Shown piece by piece: positions 13,837 through 26,871 of a DNA stretch of 57,087 nucleotides. Source of the stretch: a virus (Duplodnaviria > Heunggongvirae > Uroviricota > Caudoviricetes); the IMG/VR virus record IMGVR_UViG_2561511241_000005, positions 1 to 57,087 of that record. One strand, 5' to 3'. The notes below the pieces were generated by a model, which was not told the DNA's origin, ran no database searches, and saw nothing but the letters and a program-made list of their open reading frames with translations. The translations under genes and the position numbers were made by a program. How positions within the stretch are numbered: position 1 is the stretch's first letter; every line of letters starts with the position of its first letter.

Positions 13837-13935
13837 CCGAGTGATTCCGATCACATAAATATACATTTTGTATTGTGATCGCATATCCGTTTTGTAAGCC
13901 AAAATCAAAAGGTTTACGGTGCGGAGGAAGCAAAA

Positions 13936-14154
13936 ATGGAACGCGAATTCATGCTTTATTGCGTAGAAGGTGGCGTAGGTCATGATGCCTACGTCGCCGG
14001 GAAAAGCTATCCAGCCGATGAAGTGCTTTCTAATATGCACTTCAGGGAAAATGAAAGCCAGGTGTCTGTGTGGAAGCGATGCGTTGATGGAATTGAGATC
14101 GTTAGCCTTGAAAGATATTTAGGTAAATTCGACTACGGATTAATGGAGGCTTAA
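13936..14154 (+). CDS. hypothetical protein
   Basis: 72 aa ORF with RBS. Confidence 0.5.
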   Translation: MEREFMLYCVEGGVGHDAYVAGKSYPADEVLSNMHFRENESQVSVWKRCVDGIEIVSLERYLGKFDYGLMEA

Positions 14155-14156
14155 CA

Positions 14157-14249
14157 ATGGACGACACATTGCTATTTATGTGCATTTGTTGGGGGTTTAT
14201 TGCTTTATGTTTATTTGTTAGATGGTTTATTGAATACCATATGAGGTGA
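14157..14249 (+). CDS. micro-ORF, 30-aa hydrophobic peptide
   Basis: MDDTLLFMCICWGFIALCLFVRWFIEYHMR; GGAGG RBS. Confidence 0.35.
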   Translation: MDDTLLFMCICWGFIALCLFVRWFIEYHMR

Positions 14250-14252
14250 TAT

Positions 14253-14444
14253 ATGAAAAAGGTTGGCGAATACATGATACCGGATAACGCTAAATTAGCC
14301 GGGATCGGTCAATTTGGCTGTTATTACTATAACAGTGTCGGTGATATTTATCAGGTTAGTCTTATTGGTGGTGTGCAGCATTTTCGTCTGATGCACTTTG
14401 AATTAAGCGCACTTAAAAAGGCGGTGTTAATGTATGAAGTTTAA
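14253..14444 (+). CDS. hypothetical protein
   Basis: 63 aa ORF. Confidence 0.45.
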   Translation: MKKVGEYMIPDNAKLAGIGQFGCYYYNSVGDIYQVSLIGGVQHFRLMHFELSALKKAVLMYEV

Positions 14445-14637
14445 ACACTATAAAGAATGGAAAATTCCAGAATCAGCAACAAAGGCAGCGCCAGGAAATT
14501 TTTCTGGCGTTTATTTTTATATGGATGGCAAATGGTATTTCGGCAGCAGGCCAGATCACTATTATCAGGAAATATGCAAGCCTCACGTTTGGGATATTAA
14601 AGAGCGTGTAAAAGACGGGGTGATTGAGGACGTTTAA
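14434..14637 (+). CDS. hypothetical protein
   Basis: 67 aa ORF. Confidence 0.45.
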   Translation: MKFKHYKEWKIPESATKAAPGNFSGVYFYMDGKWYFGSRPDHYYQEICKPHVWDIKERVKDGVIEDV

Positions 14638-14638
14638 A

Positions 14639-14875
14639 ATGGTTAAGAGCTTTTTAAACTGGTTGGGAGCGTGGCTTTTAGCTACGCTTTTTGTTTTCCT
14701 GGCGTTCATGGCTGTTATCGTTGTTATTATGCTGGGGGCAATGTTTATTACGTGGTCACTGCCTGAATTTAACGAAATAGGCGAGATCCTTGCCGCAGGG
14801 CGCGCTTTATTAACGGTTAGTGCATTTATCGGGTTTTGCTGGACTGCCGCGCCAGATTGGGATGATCCTTTTTAA
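14639..14875 (+). CDS. small membrane protein (two predicted TM helices)
   Basis: ATG 14639 with GAGGA RBS; hydrophobic segments. Confidence 0.45.
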   Translation: MVKSFLNWLGAWLLATLFVFLAFMAVIVVIMLGAMFITWSLPEFNEIGEILAAGRALLTVSAFIGFCWTAAPDWDDPF

Positions 14876-14877
14876 TT

Positions 14878-15111
14878 ATGGCTTTATTCAACCTGTCAGA
14901 GCCGCAATTCAACGCCGTAAAAACTGCCGCACGCGCGGCGCTTTCTGCCTGCAAAGCGGAGGTAGAAAAGAACGGATACAGCGATAAAGCCACGCGGCTG
15001 ATACTCGACAAGCATTATCGCAAGGTCGCCCCGCTAATTAGCATTGAGCGTTTTGTGTGGTTGGTGGGGTATCTAAATAACCGCTGGGGGACTGATCAGG
15101 ATTATTTCTAA
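14878..15111 (+). CDS. hypothetical protein
   Basis: 77 aa ORF. Confidence 0.45.
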   Translation: MALFNLSEPQFNAVKTAARAALSACKAEVEKNGYSDKATRLILDKHYRKVAPLISIERFVWLVGYLNNRWGTDQDYF

Positions 15112-16144: not shown

Positions 16145-16628
16145 CAGGTTACTGGCCTGCGTTTATGTCGCCGTTTTCGTGATCATAAATCTTATTGTTA
16201 ACCATTGCGGCCCGTGGGTAATTCCGATCACCACGGTAGCCGCCGTGTGTGTCAATATGATGATCCGTGACTTCCTGTTATATGACGGCGGCCTGAAATG
16301 GTCGGCTACAACATGCGCCGCCGCTGGCGCAATCACTGTGCTGATAAATTACGACGCCGGAATGGTGGCGATCGCGTCATTTGTCGCGGTTGTTTCCGGT
16401 GCGCTTATTTCTGGTGGCGTTTACCGGGTTTTACCTGGTGATTTCGATTCAAAACGATGGCCTGCAAATATAGCGTCCGCCATTGGTGATGCGTTAATTT
16501 TCCCGACGCTATCGTTTATGGCGTTTATGCCGGAAATATCAGCGATGCAATTCATCTCAAAAATGGCAGCGGTAACGGTGATCACCATCATCATGCGCCG
16601 CTATTTCACGTTTGAGGGCAGAAAATGA
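16125..16628 (+). CDS. integral membrane protein (about five TM helices)
   Basis: ATG 16125 with AAGGA RBS; highly hydrophobic 167 aa; stop overlaps next start. Confidence 0.55.
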   Translation: MKRVMIDRLLACVYVAVFVIINLIVNHCGPWVIPITTVAAVCVNMMIRDFLLYDGGLKWSATTCAAAGAITVLINYDAGMVAIASFVAVVSGALISGGVYRVLPGDFDSKRWPANIASAIGDALIFPTLSFMAFMPEISAMQFISKMAAVTVITIIMRRYFTFEGRK

Positions 16629-17413
16629 GCAGGGCTAAACATTGGTTAAATAATTGGCTTAGAAATTGGGTGGTATGGTCGCTGTACGACGGCAGCGGGT
16701 ACGCCGTTAAAGATTGGGCGGACGCTGGTTATAAATGTTATTGCTTCAACTATGACGGCGCTAATCACGGTGATTATGACGGTGTAAAAATAATTCATCC
16801 AAATATTGAATATGTTAACGTCTGGATTGATAGCCATTTTCTGGTAATGTTCTCCCCTGAATTGTCTGTATATCCAGATCCTGACATTATCCTGGCTTTT
16901 CCTCCGTGCGATGATCTCGCCGTGTCCGGCGCTCGCTGGTTCGCTGATAAGCGGAAGAAAGACCCTTACTTTCAGCAGAAGGCAGCGTATAACGCAAAGT
17001 TAGTAGAAACGCTGGCGAGTATGTATAACGTGCCGTGGATGGTGGAAAATCCTGTAGGCGCACTGTCAACGTTATGGCGTAAACCGGATTTTATCTTCAA
17101 TCCGTGCGCTTACGGTGGCTACCTGCCGGAAGATGATAAGCATCCCGCTTTCCCGGAATACATTGCCGACCGCGACGCCTACACGAAGAAAACTTGTATT
17201 TGGTGCGGGAATGGATTTAAGCAGCCGCTATTCCGTCCTGTGCCGATGCCAGATGAATGGGAAGACAGTAAGCAGCACGCGAAGTTAGGCGGAAAATCAA
17301 AGCGAACAAAGATGATCCGCTCACTAACGCCGCGTGGCTTCGCCCGTGCTGTATTCCTGGCTAACGACCGGGCCATCAATCGTACTACGCTCAACCGCGT
17401 TTTGCCGGACTGA
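16625..17413 (+). CDS. Putative SAM-dependent DNA methyltransferase, C5-cytosine-like motifs
   Basis: 262 aa; DGSGY (motif I-like), FPPCDDLAVSG (PC motif IV-like), MVENPVG (ENV motif VI-like). Confidence 0.5.
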   Translation: MSRAKHWLNNWLRNWVVWSLYDGSGYAVKDWADAGYKCYCFNYDGANHGDYDGVKIIHPNIEYVNVWIDSHFLVMFSPELSVYPDPDIILAFPPCDDLAVSGARWFADKRKKDPYFQQKAAYNAKLVETLASMYNVPWMVENPVGALSTLWRKPDFIFNPCAYGGYLPEDDKHPAFPEYIADRDAYTKKTCIWCGNGFKQPLFRPVPMPDEWEDSKQHAKLGGKSKRTKMIRSLTPRGFARAVFLANDRAINRTTLNRVLPD

Positions 17414-17435
17414 AGTTTACAAAATGGCGTCATTG

Positions 17436-17451
17436 TGTGATGAATGTCACA
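17436..17451. promoter_or_regulatory. Perfect TGTGA-N6-TCACA palindrome (CRP-consensus-like site)
   Basis: tgtgatgaatgtcaca in intergenic region between methylase-like gene and NinF-like ORF. Confidence 0.3.
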
Positions 17452-17572
17452 TAATGGCGCTTTACACCTTGTTAGCACGTATCCATTTTGTATACTTCAA
17501 GCAAACAAAATGCTCTTTAAAAATCCGGCAGCGCTGAAATGCGTAGAAATCACCTGAAAAGGAGAGAGCATT

Positions 17573-18773: not shown

Positions 18774-18952
18774 AAAACGAAATTAAAGATCTGCAAATAG
18801 ATATTCAGCGTGACGAGCATGATTTAGCTACAGTCCGACAAATCCAGGCTTTTCATATGCGCGAATTGCTTGCATTGAAAGAGCTTGAGAGAAAGTTAGT
18901 TCAGTCTATTTCTGATCGTAAACACCTTATTGCTCGTTACGGGGGCAAATAA
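18770..18952 (+). CDS. hypothetical protein
   Basis: 60 aa coiled-coil-like ORF, translationally coupled. Confidence 0.5.
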   Translation: MKNEIKDLQIDIQRDEHDLATVRQIQAFHMRELLALKELERKLVQSISDRKHLIARYGGK

Positions 18953-19680
18953 TGAATCTGGAATCAATTCTTAAATTCCACTTCCCGAAATCACCGCGTT
19001 TGTCAGATGAAAGCCGGGGAACGTCCCCGGATGCGCTTAATACTACTGATGCGCTAACTGCCGCAGGAATGGCGCAATCGCGCGTAGAGCTTGGCTATAG
19101 CGCTTTTTTAGGGAAGATGGAACTATCACAAGCCGAAAAACATAAGGCCGTAGTTTTGCTTACAGAGCGTTTAAGGGCTATGGCAAAAGATTATGAATAC
19201 GTTATGGAACTGGACGAGGCCAAACGCAATGATCTCATTATTCTTGTTGCCGTTTTCGCGTTTCGGGATTACTGCCAGAGTGCAGCGACCGAAAAAGTTT
19301 GCCCTACGTGCTGCGGTCACGGGCATTTACCAAAACCATATGGCGAATACACATCAACAATTTGCGCACGGTGCGGCGGCAAAGGCTACGTTAAAAACCA
19401 TTGCCAACGTTGCAAGGGGCGCGGCGAAGTACCGGATAAAACAGCCAGCGAAGCGGCGGAAATGCCAGTATTCAAAACGTGCCAGCATTGCGGCGGGCGC
19501 GGGTACTCGCGTTTCCCTGTAGATCTCGTCCGGCAGGCGGTTAATCAGCTTGTTTTTCCGGTAAGCCGATCAACCTGGTGGAAGAAATACCGGGTTTTCT
19601 ATGAAGACGCCATAGCGGAGCTATTCAAAGAAGAGGCCCGCGCGGAAAGTGAGATTAAACGAGTGACACGGGGTGAATAA
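18952..19680 (+). CDS. Q-like late antiterminator candidate with four DnaJ-type CxxCxGxG zinc-finger repeats
   Basis: 242 aa; CPTCCGHG, CARCGGKG, CQRCKGRG, CQHCGGRG repeats; located after ninG/rusA. Confidence 0.45.
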   Translation: MNLESILKFHFPKSPRLSDESRGTSPDALNTTDALTAAGMAQSRVELGYSAFLGKMELSQAEKHKAVVLLTERLRAMAKDYEYVMELDEAKRNDLIILVAVFAFRDYCQSAATEKVCPTCCGHGHLPKPYGEYTSTICARCGGKGYVKNHCQRCKGRGEVPDKTASEAAEMPVFKTCQHCGGRGYSRFPVDLVRQAVNQLVFPVSRSTWWKKYRVFYEDAIAELFKEEARAESEIKRVTRGE

Positions 19681-19883
19681 TGGATAAGCTGGAAATAAAC
19701 GATCAGTTTGCTGTTATCTTATTTCAAGATAAAACAGGCGGCGCATGGTGTAAGAAAGTCACTGGTGCGGAAGCGCGTTTAATATTGGGTATGGCAAGCG
19801 CGTTAAATGAAGGCGAATTGCCAGCCATCCCTATTAAGCCTGTCAAAATTTACAAGCGGGGTGATGATCATGAAAATAATTAA
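19680..19883 (+). CDS. hypothetical protein
   Basis: 67 aa ORF. Confidence 0.45.
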   Translation: MDKLEINDQFAVILFQDKTGGAWCKKVTGAEARLILGMASALNEGELPAIPIKPVKIYKRGDDHENN

Positions 19884-20217
19884 TATTGGTTGGTTGTATT
19901 GCGAAAACTGCGACGACGACGGCATGGTCGTTAAGACTGAAAAAGGCTGCGGCTTCTTTCTGTATCAAGGAGATAAGTTTGTTTGTCCGCGATGCGGTGG
20001 TCATGGTGAGATAGAAATTATTGAAGATAACGCCGCAGCGCCAGAGCCAGAACGCATTGTTCTTGATGAAAAAATAAAAATTCATCCTGATTTATTACAA
20101 CAAATTATCGATCACGTATCGGCAGCCGCAATCTACAGTGATAACAATTATCAGCGTGAAATGAACGTCAAGCGTGCGCTTGAGCAGTATTTTAAGGGTG
20201 ACGATGATGAAGCCTAA
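19870..20217 (+). CDS. hypothetical zinc-ribbon protein
   Basis: ATG 19870 with GGGGTGA RBS; CENC...CPRCGGHG cysteine pairs. Confidence 0.5.
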   Translation: MKIINIGWLYCENCDDDGMVVKTEKGCGFFLYQGDKFVCPRCGGHGEIEIIEDNAAAPEPERIVLDEKIKIHPDLLQQIIDHVSAAAIYSDNNYQREMNVKRALEQYFKGDDDEA

Positions 20218-20476
20218 ATTAAAAGAACATCTATTTGCAAAGCTGGTTAATGATCTGACATTATCCGCGCGGTTGTGCCGTGATACACAACAATTGAGGG
20301 CGTGGATAGCAAGGGATTTAAAAAAATATATTGAGCCTGGCGGGCAAGGTGGCGAAATGACTATGGACAAGGCCATCAAGCGCCGTTCGGCTGATTGGTC
20401 AGTTAGTAATACTGGGTTAACCGGATACATTGAAGGCTATAACGACTGTTTACAGGATCATAGCGATGAAAAGTAA
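20204..20476 (+). CDS. hypothetical protein
   Basis: ATG 20204 with AAGGGTG RBS. Confidence 0.45.
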   Translation: MMKPKLKEHLFAKLVNDLTLSARLCRDTQQLRAWIARDLKKYIEPGGQGGEMTMDKAIKRRSADWSVSNTGLTGYIEGYNDCLQDHSDEK

Positions 20477-20777
20477 ACACCTGCATTTAAATTTAAAAGG
20501 AGAATACTTCCACGCTATCCGTGCGGGAAAGAAGGTGGAGGAATACCGGCTTTATAATGATTATTGGCGTAAACGCCTGGAAGGGCGGGAATATGAACGC
20601 CTGATCATTAAGCTGGGGTATCCAGCCAGCCACGAAGCACACCGGATTATAAACCTGCCTTATTTTGGCTATGAAGTTAAAACTATCACACATCCATTGT
20701 TCGGCCCTGATCCTGTTAAGGTATTCGCAATTAAATGTGATGTGAATTGGATGCTAAGAGGTGAAAATGAAAAGTAA
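20466..20777 (+). CDS. ASCH-like (PUA-fold) domain protein
   Basis: N-terminal LKGEYFHAIRAGKKVEEYR resembles ASCH domain start. Confidence 0.4.
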   Translation: MKSKHLHLNLKGEYFHAIRAGKKVEEYRLYNDYWRKRLEGREYERLIIKLGYPASHEAHRIINLPYFGYEVKTITHPLFGPDPVKVFAIKCDVNWMLRGENEK

Positions 20778-20982
20778 CCGTAAACGCCTTGTAAGGGCGT
20801 ACGACAAAGCATTAAAGGCTTTTGATGATCTACGACACAATAAACGCCAGCGCCGCAAATGGGCGCGTATGCTTGTTTATGAGTGGCATTATTCTGATGC
20901 TTTTATGGAAAGTGCGCCGCTATTAACACAAGAACAAGCCGACGAAGTAGCTAACGATAACGTTTATTATATGATGTGGTGA
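20767..20982 (+). CDS. hypothetical protein, paralog A of tandem pair
   Basis: MKSNRKRLVRAYDKALKAFDD...DNVYYMMW; paralogous to next ORF. Confidence 0.5.
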   Translation: MKSNRKRLVRAYDKALKAFDDLRHNKRQRRKWARMLVYEWHYSDAFMESAPLLTQEQADEVANDNVYYMMW

Positions 20983-20986
20983 TAAT

Positions 20987-21208
20987 ATGAAAAGTAACCG
21001 TAAGCGCATGATAAGAGCATATGATAAAGCGTTAATGGAATTTGACATACTACCACGCAGCAAGCGCCACCGCCGCCAATTTGCGAGATATATTTTTCAT
21101 ATATGGCACGATGCTGATTTCTTTTTTGATGCCAGATATATAACACAGGAAGATGCTGATAATATAGCTTACGATAACGTTTACTACATAATGAGTGAGT
21201 GTAATTAA
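20987..21208 (+). CDS. hypothetical protein, paralog B of tandem pair
   Basis: MKSNRKRMIRAYDKALMEFD...DNVYYIMSECN; GGTGA RBS. Confidence 0.5.
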   Translation: MKSNRKRMIRAYDKALMEFDILPRSKRHRRQFARYIFHIWHDADFFFDARYITQEDADNIAYDNVYYIMSECN

Positions 21209-21209
21209 T

Positions 21210-21575
21210 ATGCAAATAATCATTGATTACCTTTGCCACGCTGTAAATACTCTTTTCGGTTTTTATCAACAACCATTCCTCAAAGAATGGGATGATATGC
21301 TAAATGACATCCTCGATAAAGGCTTAATAATGGAGGTTGACGAGCTTACAATCAAATTTAATTATGATGGTGAAATTTATCTAATTTGGGTCGGGAATAG
21401 ATGGTATTCATACGGTCATATTTATTCAATTGGCAATAAATACATTAAAAGGGGGCAAGAATTCAGACCACGCTTCCGCACAATGCGCCGCCTGCATAAC
21501 CTGCATATAAATCTATTTGAAGATCAGGAAGCACGGGAATTATTCAAAATTTACGGGGGTAAACAATGGAGTTAA
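21210..21575 (+). CDS. hypothetical protein
   Basis: 121 aa from ATG 21210. Confidence 0.45.
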   Translation: MQIIIDYLCHAVNTLFGFYQQPFLKEWDDMLNDILDKGLIMEVDELTIKFNYDGEIYLIWVGNRWYSYGHIYSIGNKYIKRGQEFRPRFRTMRRLHNLHINLFEDQEARELFKIYGGKQWS

Positions 21576-21796
21576 AGATCTGGTGTGCTATTGATGTTGT
21601 TGACAACGAATTAAGCATGTTTGCAACTGATGGAAAGCGCGTGGTGATCGCTACATGGACGCGCAATCATGATGATATTGTTTTTCGTCGCAAGGCTGCG
21701 GAGTGGCTTTTCTCTGATGACGGCTACACGATGAATATCGCACAGCTTGCCAGGATGAAAGATGAAATACTGACTGACAGCTACACAACAGCGTAA
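21566..21796 (+). CDS. hypothetical protein
   Basis: 76 aa ORF with RBS. Confidence 0.5.
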   Translation: MELKIWCAIDVVDNELSMFATDGKRVVIATWTRNHDDIVFRRKAAEWLFSDDGYTMNIAQLARMKDEILTDSYTTA

Positions 21797-21806
21797 CGGG
21801 GTAAAT

Positions 21807-22037
21807 ATGCGTATCTATGAGCACAAGCGGGATAAGACCCGCTTTTTTGTTCGTGCTGGCGTTGCGTACCAGTATCACGAATGCGGATATATTGAGGCGC
21901 TTGCTTACGATCTGGACTTCGAACAAGAAAAGGAATGGTTTGATTTTAAAGTTTACCGGAAGCGTAAACCGTCGCGCGACGAGCGCCACGCTATCCGGGA
22001 CTTTTTAATCAGCATTGAACGATGGGATACAGAGTAA
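21807..22037 (+). CDS. hypothetical protein
   Basis: 76 aa ORF with RBS. Confidence 0.5.
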   Translation: MRIYEHKRDKTRFFVRAGVAYQYHECGYIEALAYDLDFEQEKEWFDFKVYRKRKPSRDERHAIRDFLISIERWDTE

Positions 22038-22330
22038 TGAGAGCGAAGAAAATGGCAGACAAGAAAGCGTTAGTTATTGCCACAACGGATGTATCGTTAT
22101 TTACGAAGGGCGAAGAAATAGATCTTAAATTGCTTTTTGGCATGTTTGAGCCACACGAAAAGCCGTGGTTCGTACATGAAGATAAACAAGGCAATATGCG
22201 CGTTGTAGTGCCGGACAAAAACAGCGACATATTTTTTGCTATTCCAGACCCATTACATGACGGTGAAATGCTGGCGGTATTGTTGGTCACTGATGCTGTT
22301 ACTTACAAGGGAAAAAAACATGAAAGTTAA
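22037..22330 (+). CDS. hypothetical protein
   Basis: ORF; start uncertain (22022, 22037 or 22052). Confidence 0.45.
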   Translation: MRAKKMADKKALVIATTDVSLFTKGEEIDLKLLFGMFEPHEKPWFVHEDKQGNMRVVVPDKNSDIFFAIPDPLHDGEMLAVLLVTDAVTYKGKKHES

Positions 22331-22547
22331 ATTCTTGCACGATCACGGTTATCCGTCACTGAAACAGGTTGTTGGTAAGGTCGTGAAAGTGGTTCATAGT
22401 GATAATGTTACTTGCATGATTAACGGTGCTGATCTAATAGCCGCTGGCGCTGATGACCATTACATCAATCCTGCGTGGTCGTATACGTTCAGCCTTGCCG
22501 ACTTCGTTGGCGACAAGGGGCGCGGGCTGGAAGTAGTCGAGGGTTAA
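22320..22547 (+). CDS. hypothetical protein
   Basis: 75 aa from ATG 22320. Confidence 0.45.
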   Translation: MKVKFLHDHGYPSLKQVVGKVVKVVHSDNVTCMINGADLIAAGADDHYINPAWSYTFSLADFVGDKGRGLEVVEG

Positions 22548-22551
22548 CATC

Positions 22552-22800
22552 ATGGACGTTTACGAAGATCTATACCTCCAGACAAACACTCGCACTTTTT
22601 ATTTCCTGAAAAACGGCGTCGTATATCGCAGTGACGACGGGGTAATAATGAAAGAGTGGTTATTCAAGCGTAAAGACCTACTCGACGATCTGGTTTTTTC
22701 CGGGATATTCCGTAAACGTCCGGCTAACCTGGAAGAAGAAATGTTGATCGAGGTAATTAAAAATGAAAATCAGGGTAAGTTATTTCCGGGCGAAAGATAA
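22552..22800 (+). CDS. hypothetical protein
   Basis: 82 aa, GAGGG RBS. Confidence 0.5.
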   Translation: MDVYEDLYLQTNTRTFYFLKNGVVYRSDDGVIMKEWLFKRKDLLDDLVFSGIFRKRPANLEEEMLIEVIKNENQGKLFPGER

Positions 22801-23014
22801 GGCAACAGGAAAGCAGGTGGCGATCCTGGTTAACGAGGCCAATTACATGTTTGTGCTTCAGCCGTGGTGCGTAGCTGACTATAACGATAATTATCGTCGC
22901 CACGGCGTGCGTGGTGCTGTAGGCATGAAAGGCTGGCAACCGCGCGACATGGAAAGCTATTGTGAATGGAAGCTGATAGCAAAATACACGGTCGATTATA
23001 AAGGGGTTTTCTGA
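22763..23014 (+). CDS. hypothetical protein
   Basis: 83 aa, GAGGT RBS. Confidence 0.5.
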   Translation: MKIRVSYFRAKDKATGKQVAILVNEANYMFVLQPWCVADYNDNYRRHGVRGAVGMKGWQPRDMESYCEWKLIAKYTVDYKGVF

Positions 23015-23016
23015 TT

Positions 23017-23232
23017 ATGTTTGCAAGATGTGTTTGTTCTGATACTCCGTTCTTTACTGTTGGGGAGTCATACAGCGTTGAGCTTCTTAATGGGTGCAAG
23101 CGCGGTGCTGGCGGTATTCATTATGTAAAAGATAATGATGGCGATGCGTGGCAATTTTACGGCGATCATGCAAAAGGGGTTGTTAAGGGTAGTTTTGATA
23201 ATCGTGTAATGGCGCGTTTCGTTAAGTGGTGA
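23017..23232 (+). CDS. hypothetical protein
   Basis: 71 aa, AAAGGGG RBS. Confidence 0.5.
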   Translation: MFARCVCSDTPFFTVGESYSVELLNGCKRGAGGIHYVKDNDGDAWQFYGDHAKGVVKGSFDNRVMARFVKW

Positions 23233-23241
23233 GGTAGTGTC

Positions 23242-23481
23242 ATGAGCCGGAATCAGAGATACCAGTGCACATATTCACGATGTAGCGCGTTTTTTAAGAA
23301 TGGCAATATCTACGAAGTCGGCGCGGCATTGGTTGACGCAAAGAATCAGGAATATATTCACGCCATTACTGACGACCAGGGCCAGCTATGGCGCTTTTAC
23401 AAAATGGGGTGCGGGACGGCGCTTGTTTATTCCCGTGCTGGTGGTGGTGCTTTTGCTGCGTTTTCGTATGTGGGGGTATGA
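23242..23481 (+). CDS. hypothetical protein
   Basis: 79 aa, GAGGT RBS. Confidence 0.5.
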   Translation: MSRNQRYQCTYSRCSAFFKNGNIYEVGAALVDAKNQEYIHAITDDQGQLWRFYKMGCGTALVYSRAGGGAFAAFSYVGV

Positions 23482-23483
23482 AA

Positions 23484-23699
23484 ATGATTTTAACGTGTCA
23501 CGGATCTGATCTTGATTGTTTCGAAGACGGTTGCCAGTACGAAGCGGAAAAGCCAGGCGGATTACCAAAAAATCCGTTTTTAGTCGTTACAGACGCTTAC
23601 GGTCACTTATGGTATGCAGCGCCCAGCAAGGCGCGCGGCTGGTGGCTGATTCAGAATGACGATCGCGATGTTGTAGTTGCCTTCAGACAGGATGAATAA
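23484..23699 (+). CDS. hypothetical protein
   Basis: 71 aa from ATG 23484. Confidence 0.45.
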   Translation: MILTCHGSDLDCFEDGCQYEAEKPGGLPKNPFLVVTDAYGHLWYAAPSKARGWWLIQNDDRDVVVAFRQDE

Positions 23700-23799
23700 A
23701 AAGCGTGATCTACTCCGCAAAGTATACAAAATGGCATTGTTACGGCAGTGCCGTTTTGTTATATATAAGTCAAGGAAAGACGGAAGTGGAGACAAGAAA

Positions 23800-23940
23800 A
23801 TGAACGCAAACGCTAAATATCCGGCCTGGGTCTTTGAACTATACGCCCGCTATTTTGAAGAACTGGCACCAGGTGAAGAAGCATTAAGCATTGACGAATA
23901 CGCGGAGTGTTTAGGATTCAAGGGGGACGAAGAAGAATAA
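23800..23940 (+). CDS. small hypothetical protein (46 aa)
   Basis: ATG 23800 with GGAG RBS downstream of inverted-repeat motif; alternative longer start at 23692. Confidence 0.3.
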   Translation: MNANAKYPAWVFELYARYFEELAPGEEALSIDEYAECLGFKGDEEE

Positions 23941-23983
23941 AACACGGGGCCGGATGGCCCCATCAAACCAGAAGGGTGTAATT

Positions 23984-24283
23984 ATGAAAAGCGCTAAATT
24001 TATTGCTTGCTGTTTTGTTGAAGTCCCTAACGATGATGTTTTCTGCAATTATGAATTTAAAGACAGCTTAGGCAGATCTCATGTTGTTGTTGGTAAGCGC
24101 GGCGATTGGTTATATATAACCGATGACGATATGATTTTTACCAGAAATCAACTATTTCACATACACTCAGTAAATAATTATGCGCCAGTTGCCGCTATAT
24201 CCACAATGGATATGCATTCTAATATGTGGCTTGAAAAGGACACCGTGCATAAAGCGCGTAGCTTACCTGGTGCGGAGTATTAA
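23984..24283 (+). CDS. hypothetical protein
   Basis: 99 aa from ATG 23984 with AAGGGTG RBS. Confidence 0.5.
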   Translation: MKSAKFIACCFVEVPNDDVFCNYEFKDSLGRSHVVVGKRGDWLYITDDDMIFTRNQLFHIHSVNNYAPVAAISTMDMHSNMWLEKDTVHKARSLPGAEY

Positions 24284-24285
24284 TT

Positions 24286-24543
24286 ATGGTTGTATTTAGA
24301 CTATGGCGCGGAGTTAGTAGGCTTGATGGTGAATACAGCCGCGTTATTGAAGATGTTAACCGTGGGCGTTTTTATGAACTGGCATACAATGAGGAATTGG
24401 AAAAAACATACTTGAATGAATCTCTCCCCATGTGGCGAAAAATGGCTGGTGAAATAGCTTTCGCAATGCTCTACGGGTTTTATACAGATCATAACACGCT
24501 AATTGACGCCGAACTGGTGACGACTCTTTACGAAGGAGAATAA
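24286..24543 (+). CDS. hypothetical protein
   Basis: 85 aa, GGAG RBS. Confidence 0.5.
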   Translation: MVVFRLWRGVSRLDGEYSRVIEDVNRGRFYELAYNEELEKTYLNESLPMWRKMAGEIAFAMLYGFYTDHNTLIDAELVTTLYEGE

Positions 24544-24546
24544 ACA

Positions 24547-24870
24547 ATGACTAAATTTATCAGCGTTAAAGTTTTCCGTGGCACTATTTCAGAAGATGAA
24601 AAAAATGGCAAATTCGCCGGGCAACCTGGCGCATGTTTCCGTGTAGCCACTGAAGACGACGCGCACGTTAAATGCTTTCACGTATCGGAGCCGCCTTTTG
24701 ATGCAAAACACCTTGAAGATCTAAATAAAGTCAGAGGCTTTGTTTTTGCTTCGCTGGTGCTTAATCCTTTCCCTGAAAACGAAGTCGAATTAATTGGCGC
24801 GGAAAAGATCGCTGAATACAAAATAACAGAATCGGAAGACGGGGGATCGAAAATTGAGCGGATTGTATAA
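24547..24870 (+). CDS. hypothetical protein
   Basis: 107 aa, AAGGAG RBS. Confidence 0.5.
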   Translation: MTKFISVKVFRGTISEDEKNGKFAGQPGACFRVATEDDAHVKCFHVSEPPFDAKHLEDLNKVRGFVFASLVLNPFPENEVELIGAEKIAEYKITESEDGGSKIERIV

Positions 24871-25102
24871 GGTGTACAAAATCCGGTGTAAGGGCGAATA
24901 CCTGGGCTTTACAACCGGATGCGAATACCTGGGCCACATTGGGTACGGCCCTTTCGGTGAGTTAGGTATGAATACGATTGATGACGAGGGCGACAGCCGG
25001 ACGATTGATCTTGATTCTGATGATTTCGAATACATCCCGCCAGTGACTTACCGTGCTGTTGATGATTTCCTGGCTGAACATGAAGACGAGGAGGATGATT
25101 AA

Positions 25103-25231
25103 ATGGAAGAGTGGTATAAAATTTTATTAATCATGTTTCTTTCTGAAAATTGGGCGCTATTTGAGCGTTTTTGCGAGGAACATGGTGAAGACCCTAACGA
25201 TATTTATCACGATCTTGGGGGTGAAGATGAT
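25103..25231 (+). CDS. small hypothetical protein (42 aa)
   Basis: GAGGAGG RBS; MEEWYKILLIMFLSENWALFERF... Confidence 0.3.
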
Positions 25232-25427
25232 TGAATGCCTTATTGCTGTGATTGTTTTGCTTTATATCGCTGGCGCGATCCTGATGTCATGTTTTATTAA
25301 GTTTAGCGGTGCCGAACCTGGTGGACTTGAGATTCCTTTTTGGCCTGTGACTGTTTTTATCGCTTTCTTCGACGCTACGGCAGAGCAAATCAGGCGAGCC
25401 ATTAAGGAGCGTAAAAATGGGAAATAG
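25227..25427 (+). CDS. small membrane protein
   Basis: ATG 25227 with GGGGGTGA RBS; two hydrophobic segments. Confidence 0.4.
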   Translation: MIECLIAVIVLLYIAGAILMSCFIKFSGAEPGGLEIPFWPVTVFIAFFDATAEQIRRAIKERKNGK

Positions 25428-25614
25428 CGACCATGAATATGATGGCGTTTATCAGTCATTGGCTACGCGAGCTTATTACCGCCTCGAAGGTGAGCACGTT
25501 TTGATGCGCCTCGGTAGTCTTGATCGGTGGCATGAGCCATTTTTACCTATGACAGCGAAAGAAGTTATCACGATGGTTAATCATAGATACTGGCGCAAGG
25601 TTGGTGATTTGTAA
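25417..25614 (+). CDS. hypothetical protein
   Basis: 65 aa ORF. Confidence 0.45.
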   Translation: MGNSDHEYDGVYQSLATRAYYRLEGEHVLMRLGSLDRWHEPFLPMTAKEVITMVNHRYWRKVGDL

Positions 25615-25676
25615 CCATAATCGCGCATAAAAAACAAATAGATTAAAATATTTCCTAACAATGCGAAATTGTAATT

Positions 25677-25705
25677 ACCCGGCACCGCGCCGGGTTTTTG
25701 CTTTG
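25677..25705 (+). terminator. Rho-independent terminator immediately upstream of lysis genes (tR'-like)
   Basis: ACCCGGC-accgc-GCCGGGT hairpin followed by TTTTT. Confidence 0.5.
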
Positions 25706-25719
25706 TTGGAGGTAAATCT

Positions 25720-25920
25720 ATGTTCGACAGAATACGGGAGGCGTGCGCGTATGTGACTGGGGCCGTAACTGCTTTTTTCGGCGCGATAACCATCAATGAT
25801 ATTGCCGTCTTTGTGGGTATCTTATCAACCATAGGCACATTTGCCGTTAACTATTACTTCAAATCACAGGAGAACAAGCGAGCGCAAGAGGAACACGACG
25901 CGCGAATGGGGAATAAGTAA
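25720..25920 (+). CDS. Class II holin (pinholin-like, two TM domains)
   Basis: 66 aa; two hydrophobic helices then charged C-terminus; GGAGG RBS; directly upstream of SAR endolysin. Confidence 0.7.
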
Positions 25921-25921
25921 C

Positions 25922-26413
25922 ATGATTAGCCAATCGCTGAAGAATAAGATTATTGCTGCGGCGGCTGGTGGGGCGATCGCTATTGCGGCGGTGATGGTTA
26001 AACCATTAGAGGGCGTGGAGTACGATCCCTATCGTGATGTTATCGGCGTATGGACAGTTTGCTATGGTCACACCGGAAAAGACATCATGCTTGGTAAGAC
26101 TTACACGCAATCAGAATGCGATGCTTTGTTAAACAAGGATCTCCACAAAACCGCAAAAGCGATTGACCCATATATTAAAGTCGAAATATCAGATTTTACC
26201 CGCGCGGCGCTTTATTCATTCGCCTATAACGTAGGCGCTACCAACTTCAAAACATCAACCTTATTGAAGCTACTCAATGACGGCAAGAAATCAGAGGCGT
26301 GCGCACAGCTTAAACGCTGGGTATACGCTGGCGGTAAGAAGTGGCAAGGCCTGGTTAACCGCCGTGATGTTGAATATGCCGTTTGCGAATGGGGTGAAAC
26401 ATGGACAAGGTGA
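25922..26413 (+). CDS. SAR endolysin (T4-lysozyme-type muramidase with N-terminal signal-arrest-release domain)
   Basis: ATG 25922; N-terminal Gly/Ala-rich weakly hydrophobic helix [17 protein letters not shown]; E-x8-D-x5-T catalytic pattern [22 protein letters not shown]. Confidence 0.85.
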
Positions 26414-26871
26414 AGACGGTAATTATCGCCGCTATCGTTTGTGTCGTTGTTGGGCTTGTTGCCGCGCTTAGTCACTGCCAGTCAGTGATAAACACAATGC
26501 AAAGCGAGCTAACTACTACACAGGGCGCACTAAAAACAGCAAGTAACACTATTCAGCAGATGAAGGAGCGAAACGCCGAACTGTCAAAACTTGATAAGAG
26601 GTATCACGATGAAATTAAAGCTATCAGATCTGACATTGCTGATCTGCGTGCTGGTATTGATAGCGGTGCTATCCGGTTGCACGTCAACGCAATACCCGTG
26701 CGAGTGTCAGACGCCACCGGAACCGCCAGCAGCATTGATGGAGCCGCCTGTAGACTCACTCCCGACGCTGAATCGGCTTATCTATCCCTCAGAGAACAAC
26801 TAAAAGAGAAAGACGCGAAGATCACCGGATTGCAGGACTACATCAAGACGCAGTGCATACGCAAAGAATAA
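26401..26871 (+). CDS. Rz-like inner-membrane spanin
   Basis: 156 aa; N-terminal TM helix then coiled-coil periplasmic domain; overlaps endolysin end. Confidence 0.75.
26609..26803 (+). CDS. Rz1-like outer-membrane lipoprotein spanin embedded in Rz
   Basis: ATG 26609 with AGAGG RBS; lipobox LSGC; proline-rich mature region; alternate frame inside Rz. Confidence 0.75.
   Translation: MKLKLSDLTLLICVLVLIAVLSGCTSTQYPCECQTPPEPPAALMEPPVDSLPTLNRLIYPSENN

Follow-up and report, generated by a model that had tools for sequence, protein, structure and literature searches.

Twenty-four conserved small genes between the Q and holin genes of an mEp021-like prophage, probably the distal part of its early-right operon

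The viral DNA analysed here (IMG/VR record IMGVR_UViG_2561511241_000005; the whole stretch of 57,087 nucleotides is referred to as the window) is, judged by its sequence, a prophage of the mEpimmI (mEp021-like) group of Nus-dependent, non-lambdoid temperate coliphages described in 2025 (Negrete-Mendez et al., PMC11893012). Its subject is a block of small genes at window 19680-25614, which lies between the gene of the antiterminator Q (18952-19680) and the start of the holin gene at 25720 and is read from the + strand only. The block consists of 24 co-oriented genes (g1-g24; Table 1) specifying proteins of 43-121 amino acids (aa), and 97.0% of its 5,935 bp are coding. A preceding examination of the letters without database searches (the sequence-only reading) had described about 25 tiny open reading frames (ORFs) of 45-125 aa, tightly packed and coupled, and that description stands with small changes of number. 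(The starts of g1-g24 given here have been refined by ribosome-binding sites, by coverage of PHROG profiles and by comparison with relatives.) Among the 23 junctions, 21 fall between -38 and +10 nt, with six overlaps of 10-14 nt and one ATGA. The exceptions are the g16-g17 junction (+100 nt) and the g17-g18 junction (+43 nt), so that the block is not seamless.

All 24 ORFs are real genes under purifying selection, because the ratio of nonsynonymous to synonymous substitution (dN/dS) is 0.06-0.34 for every one of them and substitutions are in excess at third codon positions (4-36 distinct orthologues each). Run through the same script, the control genes come out at similar values (Q 0.15, holin 0.14, lysozyme 0.09, Rz 0.32). 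The orthologues are drawn from 47 related loci, for which pooled comparisons are not phylogenetically independent; the signal is uniform across ORFs. PHROG families are matched by 21 of the 24 proteins, many of them over full length. The contrary proposition, that many of these ORFs are chance open frames in a non-coding or decaying region, can appeal to their very small sizes and to the lack of any Pfam assignment above cutoff. It is hardly credible, since the dN/dS analysis already refutes it, and the PHROG matches, the presence of ribosome-binding-site-like sequences and coupled junctions among the ORFs, the retention of gene order in the 47 relatives and the detection of the mEp021 orthologue of g12 by mass spectrometry all speak against it as well. 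(The sequence-only reading had named ORFs devoid of conservation or coding signal as the observation that would count against it; every ORF of the block proves to be conserved and constrained.)

The 47 relatives comprise 45 loci from a scan of IMG/VR with Q, together with mEp010 (PP180001) and mEp021 (MH706966); no relatives of Q were confirmed in the GTDB genome collection. The Q, holin, lysozyme and Rz genes are 85-100% identical in these 47 loci and keep their order. The block is 84-89% identical in nucleotide sequence to Escherichia phages mEp010, MagusPhagus, mEp044, mEp554 and mEp013 over 53-89% of its length, partly matches mEp021 and mEp515, and is matched at 80-90% identity in prophages of 34 of 5,426 complete E. 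coli genomes.

A corresponding block separates Q from the holin in 47/47 relatives; the smallest, in mEp021, measures 2.0 kb and has 8 ORFs, and the largest reaches 6.8 kb and 28 ORFs. Over the 41 distinct Q-holin intervals, ~28 protein families (an approximate count, as single linkage merged a few families) appear in constant order. The block is therefore a stable, nearly closed gene set with deletions and not an open insertion hot spot. Genes g8, g9, g12 and g13 are present in 41/41 intervals, g7 in 40/41, and g1, g5/g6 and g11 in 39/41; g7-g9 and g11-g13 make up the core. We infer that this core matters to every member of the group and that the other block genes are dispensable.

In deposited mEpimmI records the block is annotated as a row of hypothetical proteins; the paper describing the group distinguishes core from flexible genes but has no discussion of this block, of when it is expressed or of the elements within it (PMC11893012). 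The Q-holin regions of these phages are like that of the window in position, families, gene order and the terminator before an HP1-type holin, and g12 is the orthologue of the virion-associated mEp021_41. They differ in that the combination of genes in the window is new (24 genes, vs 8 in mEp021 and ~23 in mEp010) and no relative is more than 90% identical over the window block. In other words, the block is already in the public records of a published group, and what the window adds is a new combination of the same families. This disposes of one element of the sequence-only reading, which had set the block against the Q-to-lysis interval of lambdoid phages: the phage belongs to a non-lambdoid group of which the block is a standard feature.

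Relatives of block proteins outside the group were sought by tblastn of all 24 against 50,697 phage records. Among the matches listed, relatives are found for g4, g11, g5/g6, g22 and part of g3. Those of g4 occur in Stx phages beside EaA and in Jersey-like, Klebsiella, Ralstonia and other phages, those of g5/g6 in Sashavirus and similar phages, those of g22 in Dhillonvirus-like phages, and homologues of g11 in ~119 virulent rV5-like myoviruses. In phage JES2013 and Sasha the block homologues sit within runs of small hypothetical ORFs; such runs in rV5-like Vequintavirus and in Sashavirus contain homologues of g11 (43-51% identity) and of g5/g6 (~51%). The likeness to small-ORF early regions of virulent phages to which the sequence-only reading had pointed thus has substance, in that at least 4 families (g4, g5/g6, g11, g22) occur in small-ORF runs of other phages, including virulent rV5-like and Sasha-like ones. 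It extends to 4-5 of the 24 block families among the matches listed.

The block ends just ahead of a conserved non-coding element. Between Q and the late genes there is only one sizeable stretch of this kind, the ~90 nt before the holin, and it is unchanged whatever ORF precedes. It contains the sequence AAAACAAAYAGAT-TAAAAT-ATTTCCT-AACAAT-N15-hairpin-TTTTTGCTTTG, referred to here as the cassette. TAAAAT is kept in all relatives, and AACAAT follows it by 7 nt, invariant in 30 variants; for comparison, lambda PR' reads TTGACT-N17-TAAATT-TGACTC-AACGAT, with AACGAT 6 nt after TAAATT. The conserved AAAACAAAYAGAT lies between the -35 and -10 positions of the cassette, which is where the lambda Q binding element lies. 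The hairpin, whose 7-bp stem includes 6 GC pairs and precedes a T run, is kept in all relatives with variation of the loop, and occupies a position equivalent to that of TERM_5 of mEp021. The terminator that the sequence-only reading had placed at 25677-25705 is thereby borne out, as is the lysis cassette downstream of it, with an HP1/P21-type holin, a lysozyme and Rz. Because this predicted terminator exists and is conserved, the further claim that the block is transcriptionally separated from the lysis genes also appears sound. In the 34 E. coli genomes with the block the cassette is 90-100% identical (the block, 80-90%), and its sequence is absent from all others of the 5,426 genomes searched; there is therefore no independent lineage that shows the cassette beside a Q gene.

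The Q gene itself, which the sequence-only reading had called Q-like, is of lambda type. Its product matches PF03589 above cutoff (E 2e-29) and aligns through both halves with lambda Q structures in phmmer searches (7UBM, 4MO1 and 7UBJ, E 1e-36 to 2e-14, with 7UBM at 1e-36); it has four CxxC motifs. Residues 115-149 form a ~35-residue insertion relative to lambda Q with extra CxxC motifs (DnaJ CXXCXGXG-like, E 8e-6), possibly a second zinc ribbon. In the canonical arrangement the Q gene is directly followed by PR', a sigma-dependent pause element and a terminator (bioRxiv 10.1101/651190; PMC9388147). That is not the arrangement here: the candidate cassette lies 5.9 kb downstream. There is also no conserved intergenic promoter after Q, because the Q stop overlaps g1 and because the gene that comes next differs among relatives (g1, g7 or g8).

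Since the layout of the cassette matches lambda PR' and Q is lambda-type, 25631-25705 is the best candidate for the late promoter, the Q-loading site and tR'. The order of elements is the same as in lambda and the Q proteins are homologous. The differences from lambda are in distance and detail: the window cassette is 5.9 kb from Q (2.0-6.8 kb in relatives) vs about 80 nt, its terminator is within ~45 nt of the predicted start vs 194 nt, its -35 element is weak or absent, and the window Q has the extra, possibly zinc-ribbon, insert.

Upstream of Q, the antitermination site nutR2 has been placed just downstream of the cytosine methyltransferase gene (PMC11893012). In the window a boxA, TGCTCTTTAA, occupies 17509-17518 and a hairpin with an A-rich loop lies at ~17531-17543, after the methyltransferase gene at 16625-17413; the boxA is 1.4 kb upstream of Q, and the nutR2 stretch is nearly identical to that of mEp021. 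Within the region 17414-17572 the boxA is preceded by a promoter-like TTGTTA-16-TATACT at 17469-17496 and by a perfect CRP core at 17436-17451, so that nutR2 may have its own promoter.

Two hairpins are embedded in the block on the + strand. One, terminator-like and followed by a T run, lies within the coding sequence of g9. One copy retains its pairing by two synonymous, mutually compensating changes, and nowhere in the gene is third-position diversity lower than here (0.11 vs 0.56 bits, rank 1 of 67 windows). The other belongs to an element of ~75 nt, E3, in the g16-g17 gap, which is found in 36/47 relatives and absent from 11/47. Its 15-bp hairpin is paired in 99.8% of cells, and all variation is G.U wobble, with no double compensatory changes, which fits + strand RNA; in mEp010 the ARNold terminator T8 is at this position. 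E3 also contains a -35-like TTGTTA and TGnTATATA (no T at -7), preceded by a palindrome; in 16/36 relatives the palindrome matches the CRP core TGTGA-N6-TCACA perfectly, and in the window it scores 7/10. Different genes follow E3 in different relatives, which puts it at a module junction. (A sigma-54-like GG-N10-GC in E3 was rejected as, judged by eye, a by-product of the palindrome.)

E3 is one of three copies in the window of a 55-nt composite, [GTGA-N6-YCRCA]-N17-[TTGTKA]-N8-[CCRTTTTGT], that does not occur in 100 shuffles. E1, E2 and E3 align without gaps, and syntenic copies are present in 48/51 loci. E2 lies immediately before nutR2 and combines a proper -10 (TATACT) with a perfect palindrome; E1 and E3 head sets of small genes, and their -10-like sequences, TAAGCC and TATATA, are without T at -7. 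The palindrome centres of E2 and E3 are ~60-61 nt from the predicted start (the centre of a class I CRP promoter is near -61.5), and the spacing from palindrome to -35 in E1-E3 equals that of lac-type class I promoters. E1-E3 could each be a promoter, a terminator or some other protein-binding site. CRP-like palindromes TGTGA-N6-TCACA with at most 1 mismatch number 8 in the window vs 1.6 expected, a count that 0/100 shuffles reach. The 9-mer ACAAAATGG (reverse complement CCATTTTGT) is present 11 times vs 0.93 expected; some copies are coding and others are beside palindromes in regulatory gaps. In the g17-g18 gap a GC-rich hairpin, kept in 35 relatives beside differing flanking genes, is followed by a T run only when read from the minus strand; it could serve to terminate antisense transcripts or to stabilize RNA.

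Taken together with its position, the block is probably a set of conserved small accessory genes at the distal end of the early-right (delayed-early) operon of a temperate mEpimmI phage. The early operon is favored because the sole late-promoter/terminator-like cassette found for Q lies downstream of the block, before the holin, and also because the block is contiguous with Q (1-nt overlap) and downstream of nutR2; the early-region look on which the sequence-only reading had remarked is probably genuine on the same grounds. GC skew is +0.11 to +0.24 in the block, in continuation of the early region, and drops to ~0 at the lysis genes. In the proposed scheme, polymerase would start at the early promoter and acquire resistance to termination from the N-like Gp17 at nutR1 and nutR2. 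The antiterminated polymerase would then cross ninF/ninG/rusA, Q and g1-g24, reading through the g9 hairpin and the hairpin in the g16-g17 gap on the way. Lambda-type Q made from this early transcript would load at 25631-25705 and open the late operon from the holin onward. Lying upstream of the presumed Q-controlled terminator, the block would be transcribed as the tail of the early-right operon by nutR2-modified polymerase, and its genes would be switched on together with Q or shortly afterwards, ahead of the lysis and structural genes.

Several observations weigh against this scheme or parts of it. The -35 position of the cassette is TTGTGG or TTGTAG in most relatives and has no match in the window version, and a consensus promoter scan calls no promoter there. 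A lambda-like TAAGCT-N7-AACGAT stands at 19685-19703, immediately beyond the Q stop. E3 might act as a promoter inside the block, which would place g17-g24 under regulation of their own. As regards roles for the proteins, no Pfam or PDB relative of the g7 family profile was found, and a fold search with g12 returned no match.

The second and third of these points are the starting points of two other accounts. In one, the block would belong to the late operon, transcribed from a Q-dependent promoter at the end of Q or the start of g1 with read-through of the pre-holin terminator. The 19685-19703 motif carries the pause hexamer of lambda, a promoter-like TTTACA-17-GAAAAT is present at 19849-19877, and the canonical cassette has PR' directly after Q. 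Yet the motif is inside codons 2-8 of g1, is missing where g1 is replaced (in the viable phage mEp021 and in the L004 type), and has CAAGTT for its -10-like part in at least 8 relatives; the loose pattern has 27 + strand matches in the window, the next terminator comes only at the g9 hairpin, and it is the cassette ahead of the holin that is non-coding and strongly conserved. A PR' immediately following Q, within g1 codons and lost or degraded in relatives, was accordingly rejected, and a late-operon block is quite improbable. In the other account the block, or some of it, would consist of morons, genes that the resident prophage expresses from promoters of their own (E3, for example, possibly under CRP control) and that serve the lysogen rather than lytic growth. 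It draws on the threefold composite, whose copies are all on the + strand, intergenic and placed before small-gene sets or nutR2, and on their synteny, on the perfect palindrome at E3 of many relatives with its lac-type class I spacing, on the excess of CRP-like palindromes, and on the differing genes downstream of the E3 junction. On the other hand, E2 alone has a proper -10, the window E3 palindrome has 3/10 mismatches, and E3 overlaps a conserved hairpin of the + strand RNA, accompanied by a U run, that has been annotated as a terminator. Moreover, E3 is absent from 11/47 relatives, g1-g16 are without a candidate promoter of their own, and the hairpin that follows g17 is in minus-strand orientation. 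We consider the moron account unlikely, though less so than a late-operon block, and retain the distal early-right operon as the probable location.

Temperate phages routinely carry such small accessory blocks, and two of these invite comparison. The nin region of lambda (ninA-ninI, between P and Q) is a set of small, overlapping, mostly dispensable genes of the N-dependent early-right operon, with internal terminators that antiterminated polymerase reads through. The block resembles it in close packing, in variable presence with fixed order and in lying downstream of nutR2; N dependence would be a further parallel, by analogy. However, the block differs from a nin region in position, because it lies after Q, the window phage having its ninF, ninG and rusA before Q; no sequence homology was found between block genes and nin genes. 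The Q-to-S interval of Stx-converting lambdoid phages (stx, tRNAs and ORFs) is, like the block, a multi-kilobase accessory insertion. Here the likeness is positional only, because the accessory genes of Stx phages lie downstream of PR'/tR' and are Q-dependent and late, whereas the window block appears to lie upstream of its cassette; the block is also without tRNAs and without toxin genes.

Table 1. Coordinates of the block genes, flanking genes and non-coding elements in the window
Feature	Position	Strand	Description
Q antiterminator gene	18952..19680	+	242 aa; 1-nt overlap of stop with g1 ATG
g1	19680..19883	+	67 aa; phrog_35000 E 8e-39; dN/dS 0.18; 39/41 intervals
g2	19870..20217	+	115 aa; acidic; N-terminal zinc ribbon; dN/dS 0.13; 18/41 intervals
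g3	20207..20476	+	89 aa; phrog_29262 E 1e-54; dN/dS 0.23
g4	20466..20777	+	103 aa; ASCH/PUA-like fold (weak matches); phrog_625 E 5e-36; dN/dS 0.10
g5	20767..20982	+	71 aa; tandem paralogue of g6; phrog_8758
g6	20987..21208	+	73 aa; tandem paralogue of g5; dN/dS 0.25
g7	21210..21575	+	121 aa; core, 40/41 intervals
g8	21566..21796	+	76 aa; core, 41/41 intervals; phrog_38280; dN/dS 0.10
g9	21807..22037	+	76 aa; core, 41/41 intervals; most conserved of block, dN/dS 0.06
g10	22037..22330	+	97 aa; phrog_33175 E 5e-61; dN/dS 0.10
g11	22320..22547	+	75 aa; near-core; homologues in rV5-like myoviruses
g12	22552..22800	+	82 aa; core; orthologue of mEp021_41
g13	22763..23014	+	83 aa; core, 41/41; 38-nt overlap with g12; phrog_38609 E 2e-56, full length
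g14	23017..23232	+	71 aa; weak paralogue of g15
g15	23242..23481	+	79 aa; weak paralogue of g14
g16	23478..23699	+	73 aa; acidic; dN/dS 0.23; 20/41 intervals
g17	23800..23940	+	46 aa; phrog_22232 match
g18	23984..24283	+	99 aa; alternative start possible at 23954
g19	24286..24543	+	85 aa; phrog_32200; dN/dS 0.22
g20	24547..24870	+	107 aa; phrog_23107; dN/dS 0.33
g21	24854..25102	+	76-82 aa; very acidic, pI 4.1; phrog_25234
g22	25103..25234	+	43 aa; very acidic; phrog_15754 and phrog_21467
g23	25227..25427	+	66 aa; sole membrane protein of block; phrog_10061
g24	25417..25614	+	65 aa; phrog_15318; dN/dS 0.26
Terminator-like hairpin and T run in g9	21825..21854	+	g9 codons 7-16; in 48/48 copies
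Element E3, g16-g17 gap	23703..23768	+	degenerate CRP-like palindrome 23703-23718; hairpin 23726-23759
Parts of E3	23736-23741; 23751-23759; 23759-23764	+	-35-like TTGTTA; CCGTTTTGT box; -10-like TATATA
Composite copies E1, E2, E3	13841-13895; 17437-17491; 23705-23759	+	all intergenic, in gaps of the early-right operon
GC-rich hairpin, g17-g18 gap	23944..23963	-	T run on minus strand only
Putative late cassette	25631..25705	+	-10-like TAAAAT 25643-25648; pause-element-like AACAAT 25656-25661; hairpin 25677-25695, T run to 25705
Lysis cassette	25720..26871	+	holin 25720-25920, lysozyme 25922-26413, Rz 26401-26871; PF16080, PF00959, PF03245
CRP-like palindromes	8971, 10009, 13840, 17436, 42053, 42717, 44572, 52906		several intergenic, many with GATC
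ACAAAATGG sites	9018, 9774, 17419, 17483, 23399, 23726, 31848, 35712, 39437, 44492, 52919		

The proteins of the block give few clues to what they do. Their description as of unknown function is apt, in that all PHROG families matched by the block are families of unknown function; scans with Pfam and NCBIfam of all or most block proteins give no assignment above cutoff, and PADLOC models match 0/24 at E<=0.01. An Rfam scan (gathering threshold and E<=1) finds zero families in the window or the block, and a tRNA scan finds none. As for g17, a longer reading of 82 aa from 23692 is probably not real, because phrog_22232 fits its residues 37-82 only (the last 46 residues, corresponding to 1-46/46 of the profile) and because 23697-23799 is a conserved non-coding element.

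For g4 the earlier designation as ASCH-like can be kept as a statement about fold, on weak matches, and not as one about Pfam membership. Against Pfam ASCH (PF04266) it scores 15.9 bits, below the cutoff of 21.2, over its N-terminal 25 residues only, and 2/26 members of its large family reach E<0.01. Its homologues are named ASCH, RNA-binding or DUF3850 by their sources. For the AF2 model (pLDDT 90) the 11 best Foldseek matches in PDB are all ASCH/PUA-like and weak (E 0.02-0.55, TM 0.35-0.55), among them 3IUW, 2Z0T, 1S04, 5GUS, 1WK2 and YqfB (9KYH); the g4 profile against PDB sequences gives 2Z0T and 1XNE at marginal E 0.45-0.96. With such a fold, g4 would probably bind nucleic acid. The zinc-ribbon proteins of the sequence-only reading reduce to one: g2 (CxxC at residues 11 and 39; weak match to DnaJ CXXCXGXG, E 1.6e-3) has the sole zinc ribbon in the block, and the plural was an overstatement. 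The tandem paralogue pair of that reading is confirmed in g5/g6 (57% identity, E 2e-26), and there is a second, weak pair, g14/g15 (30% identity, E 1.5e-4), both members of which match phrog_31142.

The remaining proteins can be characterized mainly by family and composition. g7 comes from a broad family whose members are stand-alone proteins of ~120 aa, with 187 clusters at 50% identity in a HMMER scan of 1.84e9 representatives and with the conserved motifs W..N.WY.YG and RP.F.TM.RL. The g12 orthologue mEp021_41 has been detected by mass spectrometry in CsCl-purified mEp021 virions, and a RegA-like translational repressor has been suggested (PMC11893012); compared with T4/RB69 RegA, g12 shows no similarity of fold or sequence. 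g2, g21 and g22 are very acidic, and g23 has a maximum 19-aa hydropathy of 2.76. The block products are small, mostly cytoplasmic single-domain proteins, and in early lytic growth they may serve as binding or modulating factors for processes of the host or the phage. The role in host takeover or anti-defence that the sequence-only reading proposed is plausible for small proteins made early; none of the present results supports it.

Features of the neighbouring regions may be noted. Upstream of the methyltransferase genes there is a small-gene run at 13936-15111 (72, 63, 67, 83 and 77 aa), headed by E1, the last gene of which may, on position and length only, be the counterpart of mEp021 ipe (inducer of pleiotropic effects). 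In the lysis cassette, the hydrophobic N-terminal stretch of the lysozyme (25922-26413) suggests a signal-anchor-release (SAR) endolysin paired with the HP1/P21-type holin. After Rz, at 27041-27090, there is a hairpin with a 10-bp stem (CTGGAAACGG...CCGTTTCCAG, 13-nt loop) followed by TGTTTTATAGCTGTTTT; equivalent to mEp021 TERM_6, it would be a second terminator, between lysis and structural genes, and it is missed by the consensus scan because its loop is long. Very small ORFs (31-52 aa), most of them hydrophobic, form a second cluster at 27689-28230, between a 180-aa gene (27150-27692; phrog_1365) and the terminase genes.

The block is real, and it is largely an ordinary accessory block of a known phage group. 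Its practical value is as a map: 24 verified small genes, a six-gene core as distinct from a dispensable shell, and a few families shared with virulent phages. The block genes are sensible targets for toxicity and anti-defence screens, and the phage group is common in the human gut. A more far-reaching picture, which we regard as doubtful, would combine a split late switch, Q being encoded 2-7 kb from where it acts, with a conserved early toolkit of ~28 families in the space between, subdivided by hairpins and possibly by cAMP-CRP-responsive E1-E3, several of whose products would be new inhibitors for host takeover or anti-defence; the candidates would be three very acidic proteins (g2, g21, g22), two widespread families (those of g7 and g4) and g12, which is carried in virions. 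The one unusual point of the locus, unproven, is the distance of kilobases between Q and the site at which it presumably acts. If the arrangement proposed here is true, Q would act kilobases from its own gene, accessory genes would stand upstream of the late cassette, and a repeated composite element would punctuate the early operon. This would add a variant to the textbook late switch of lambda.

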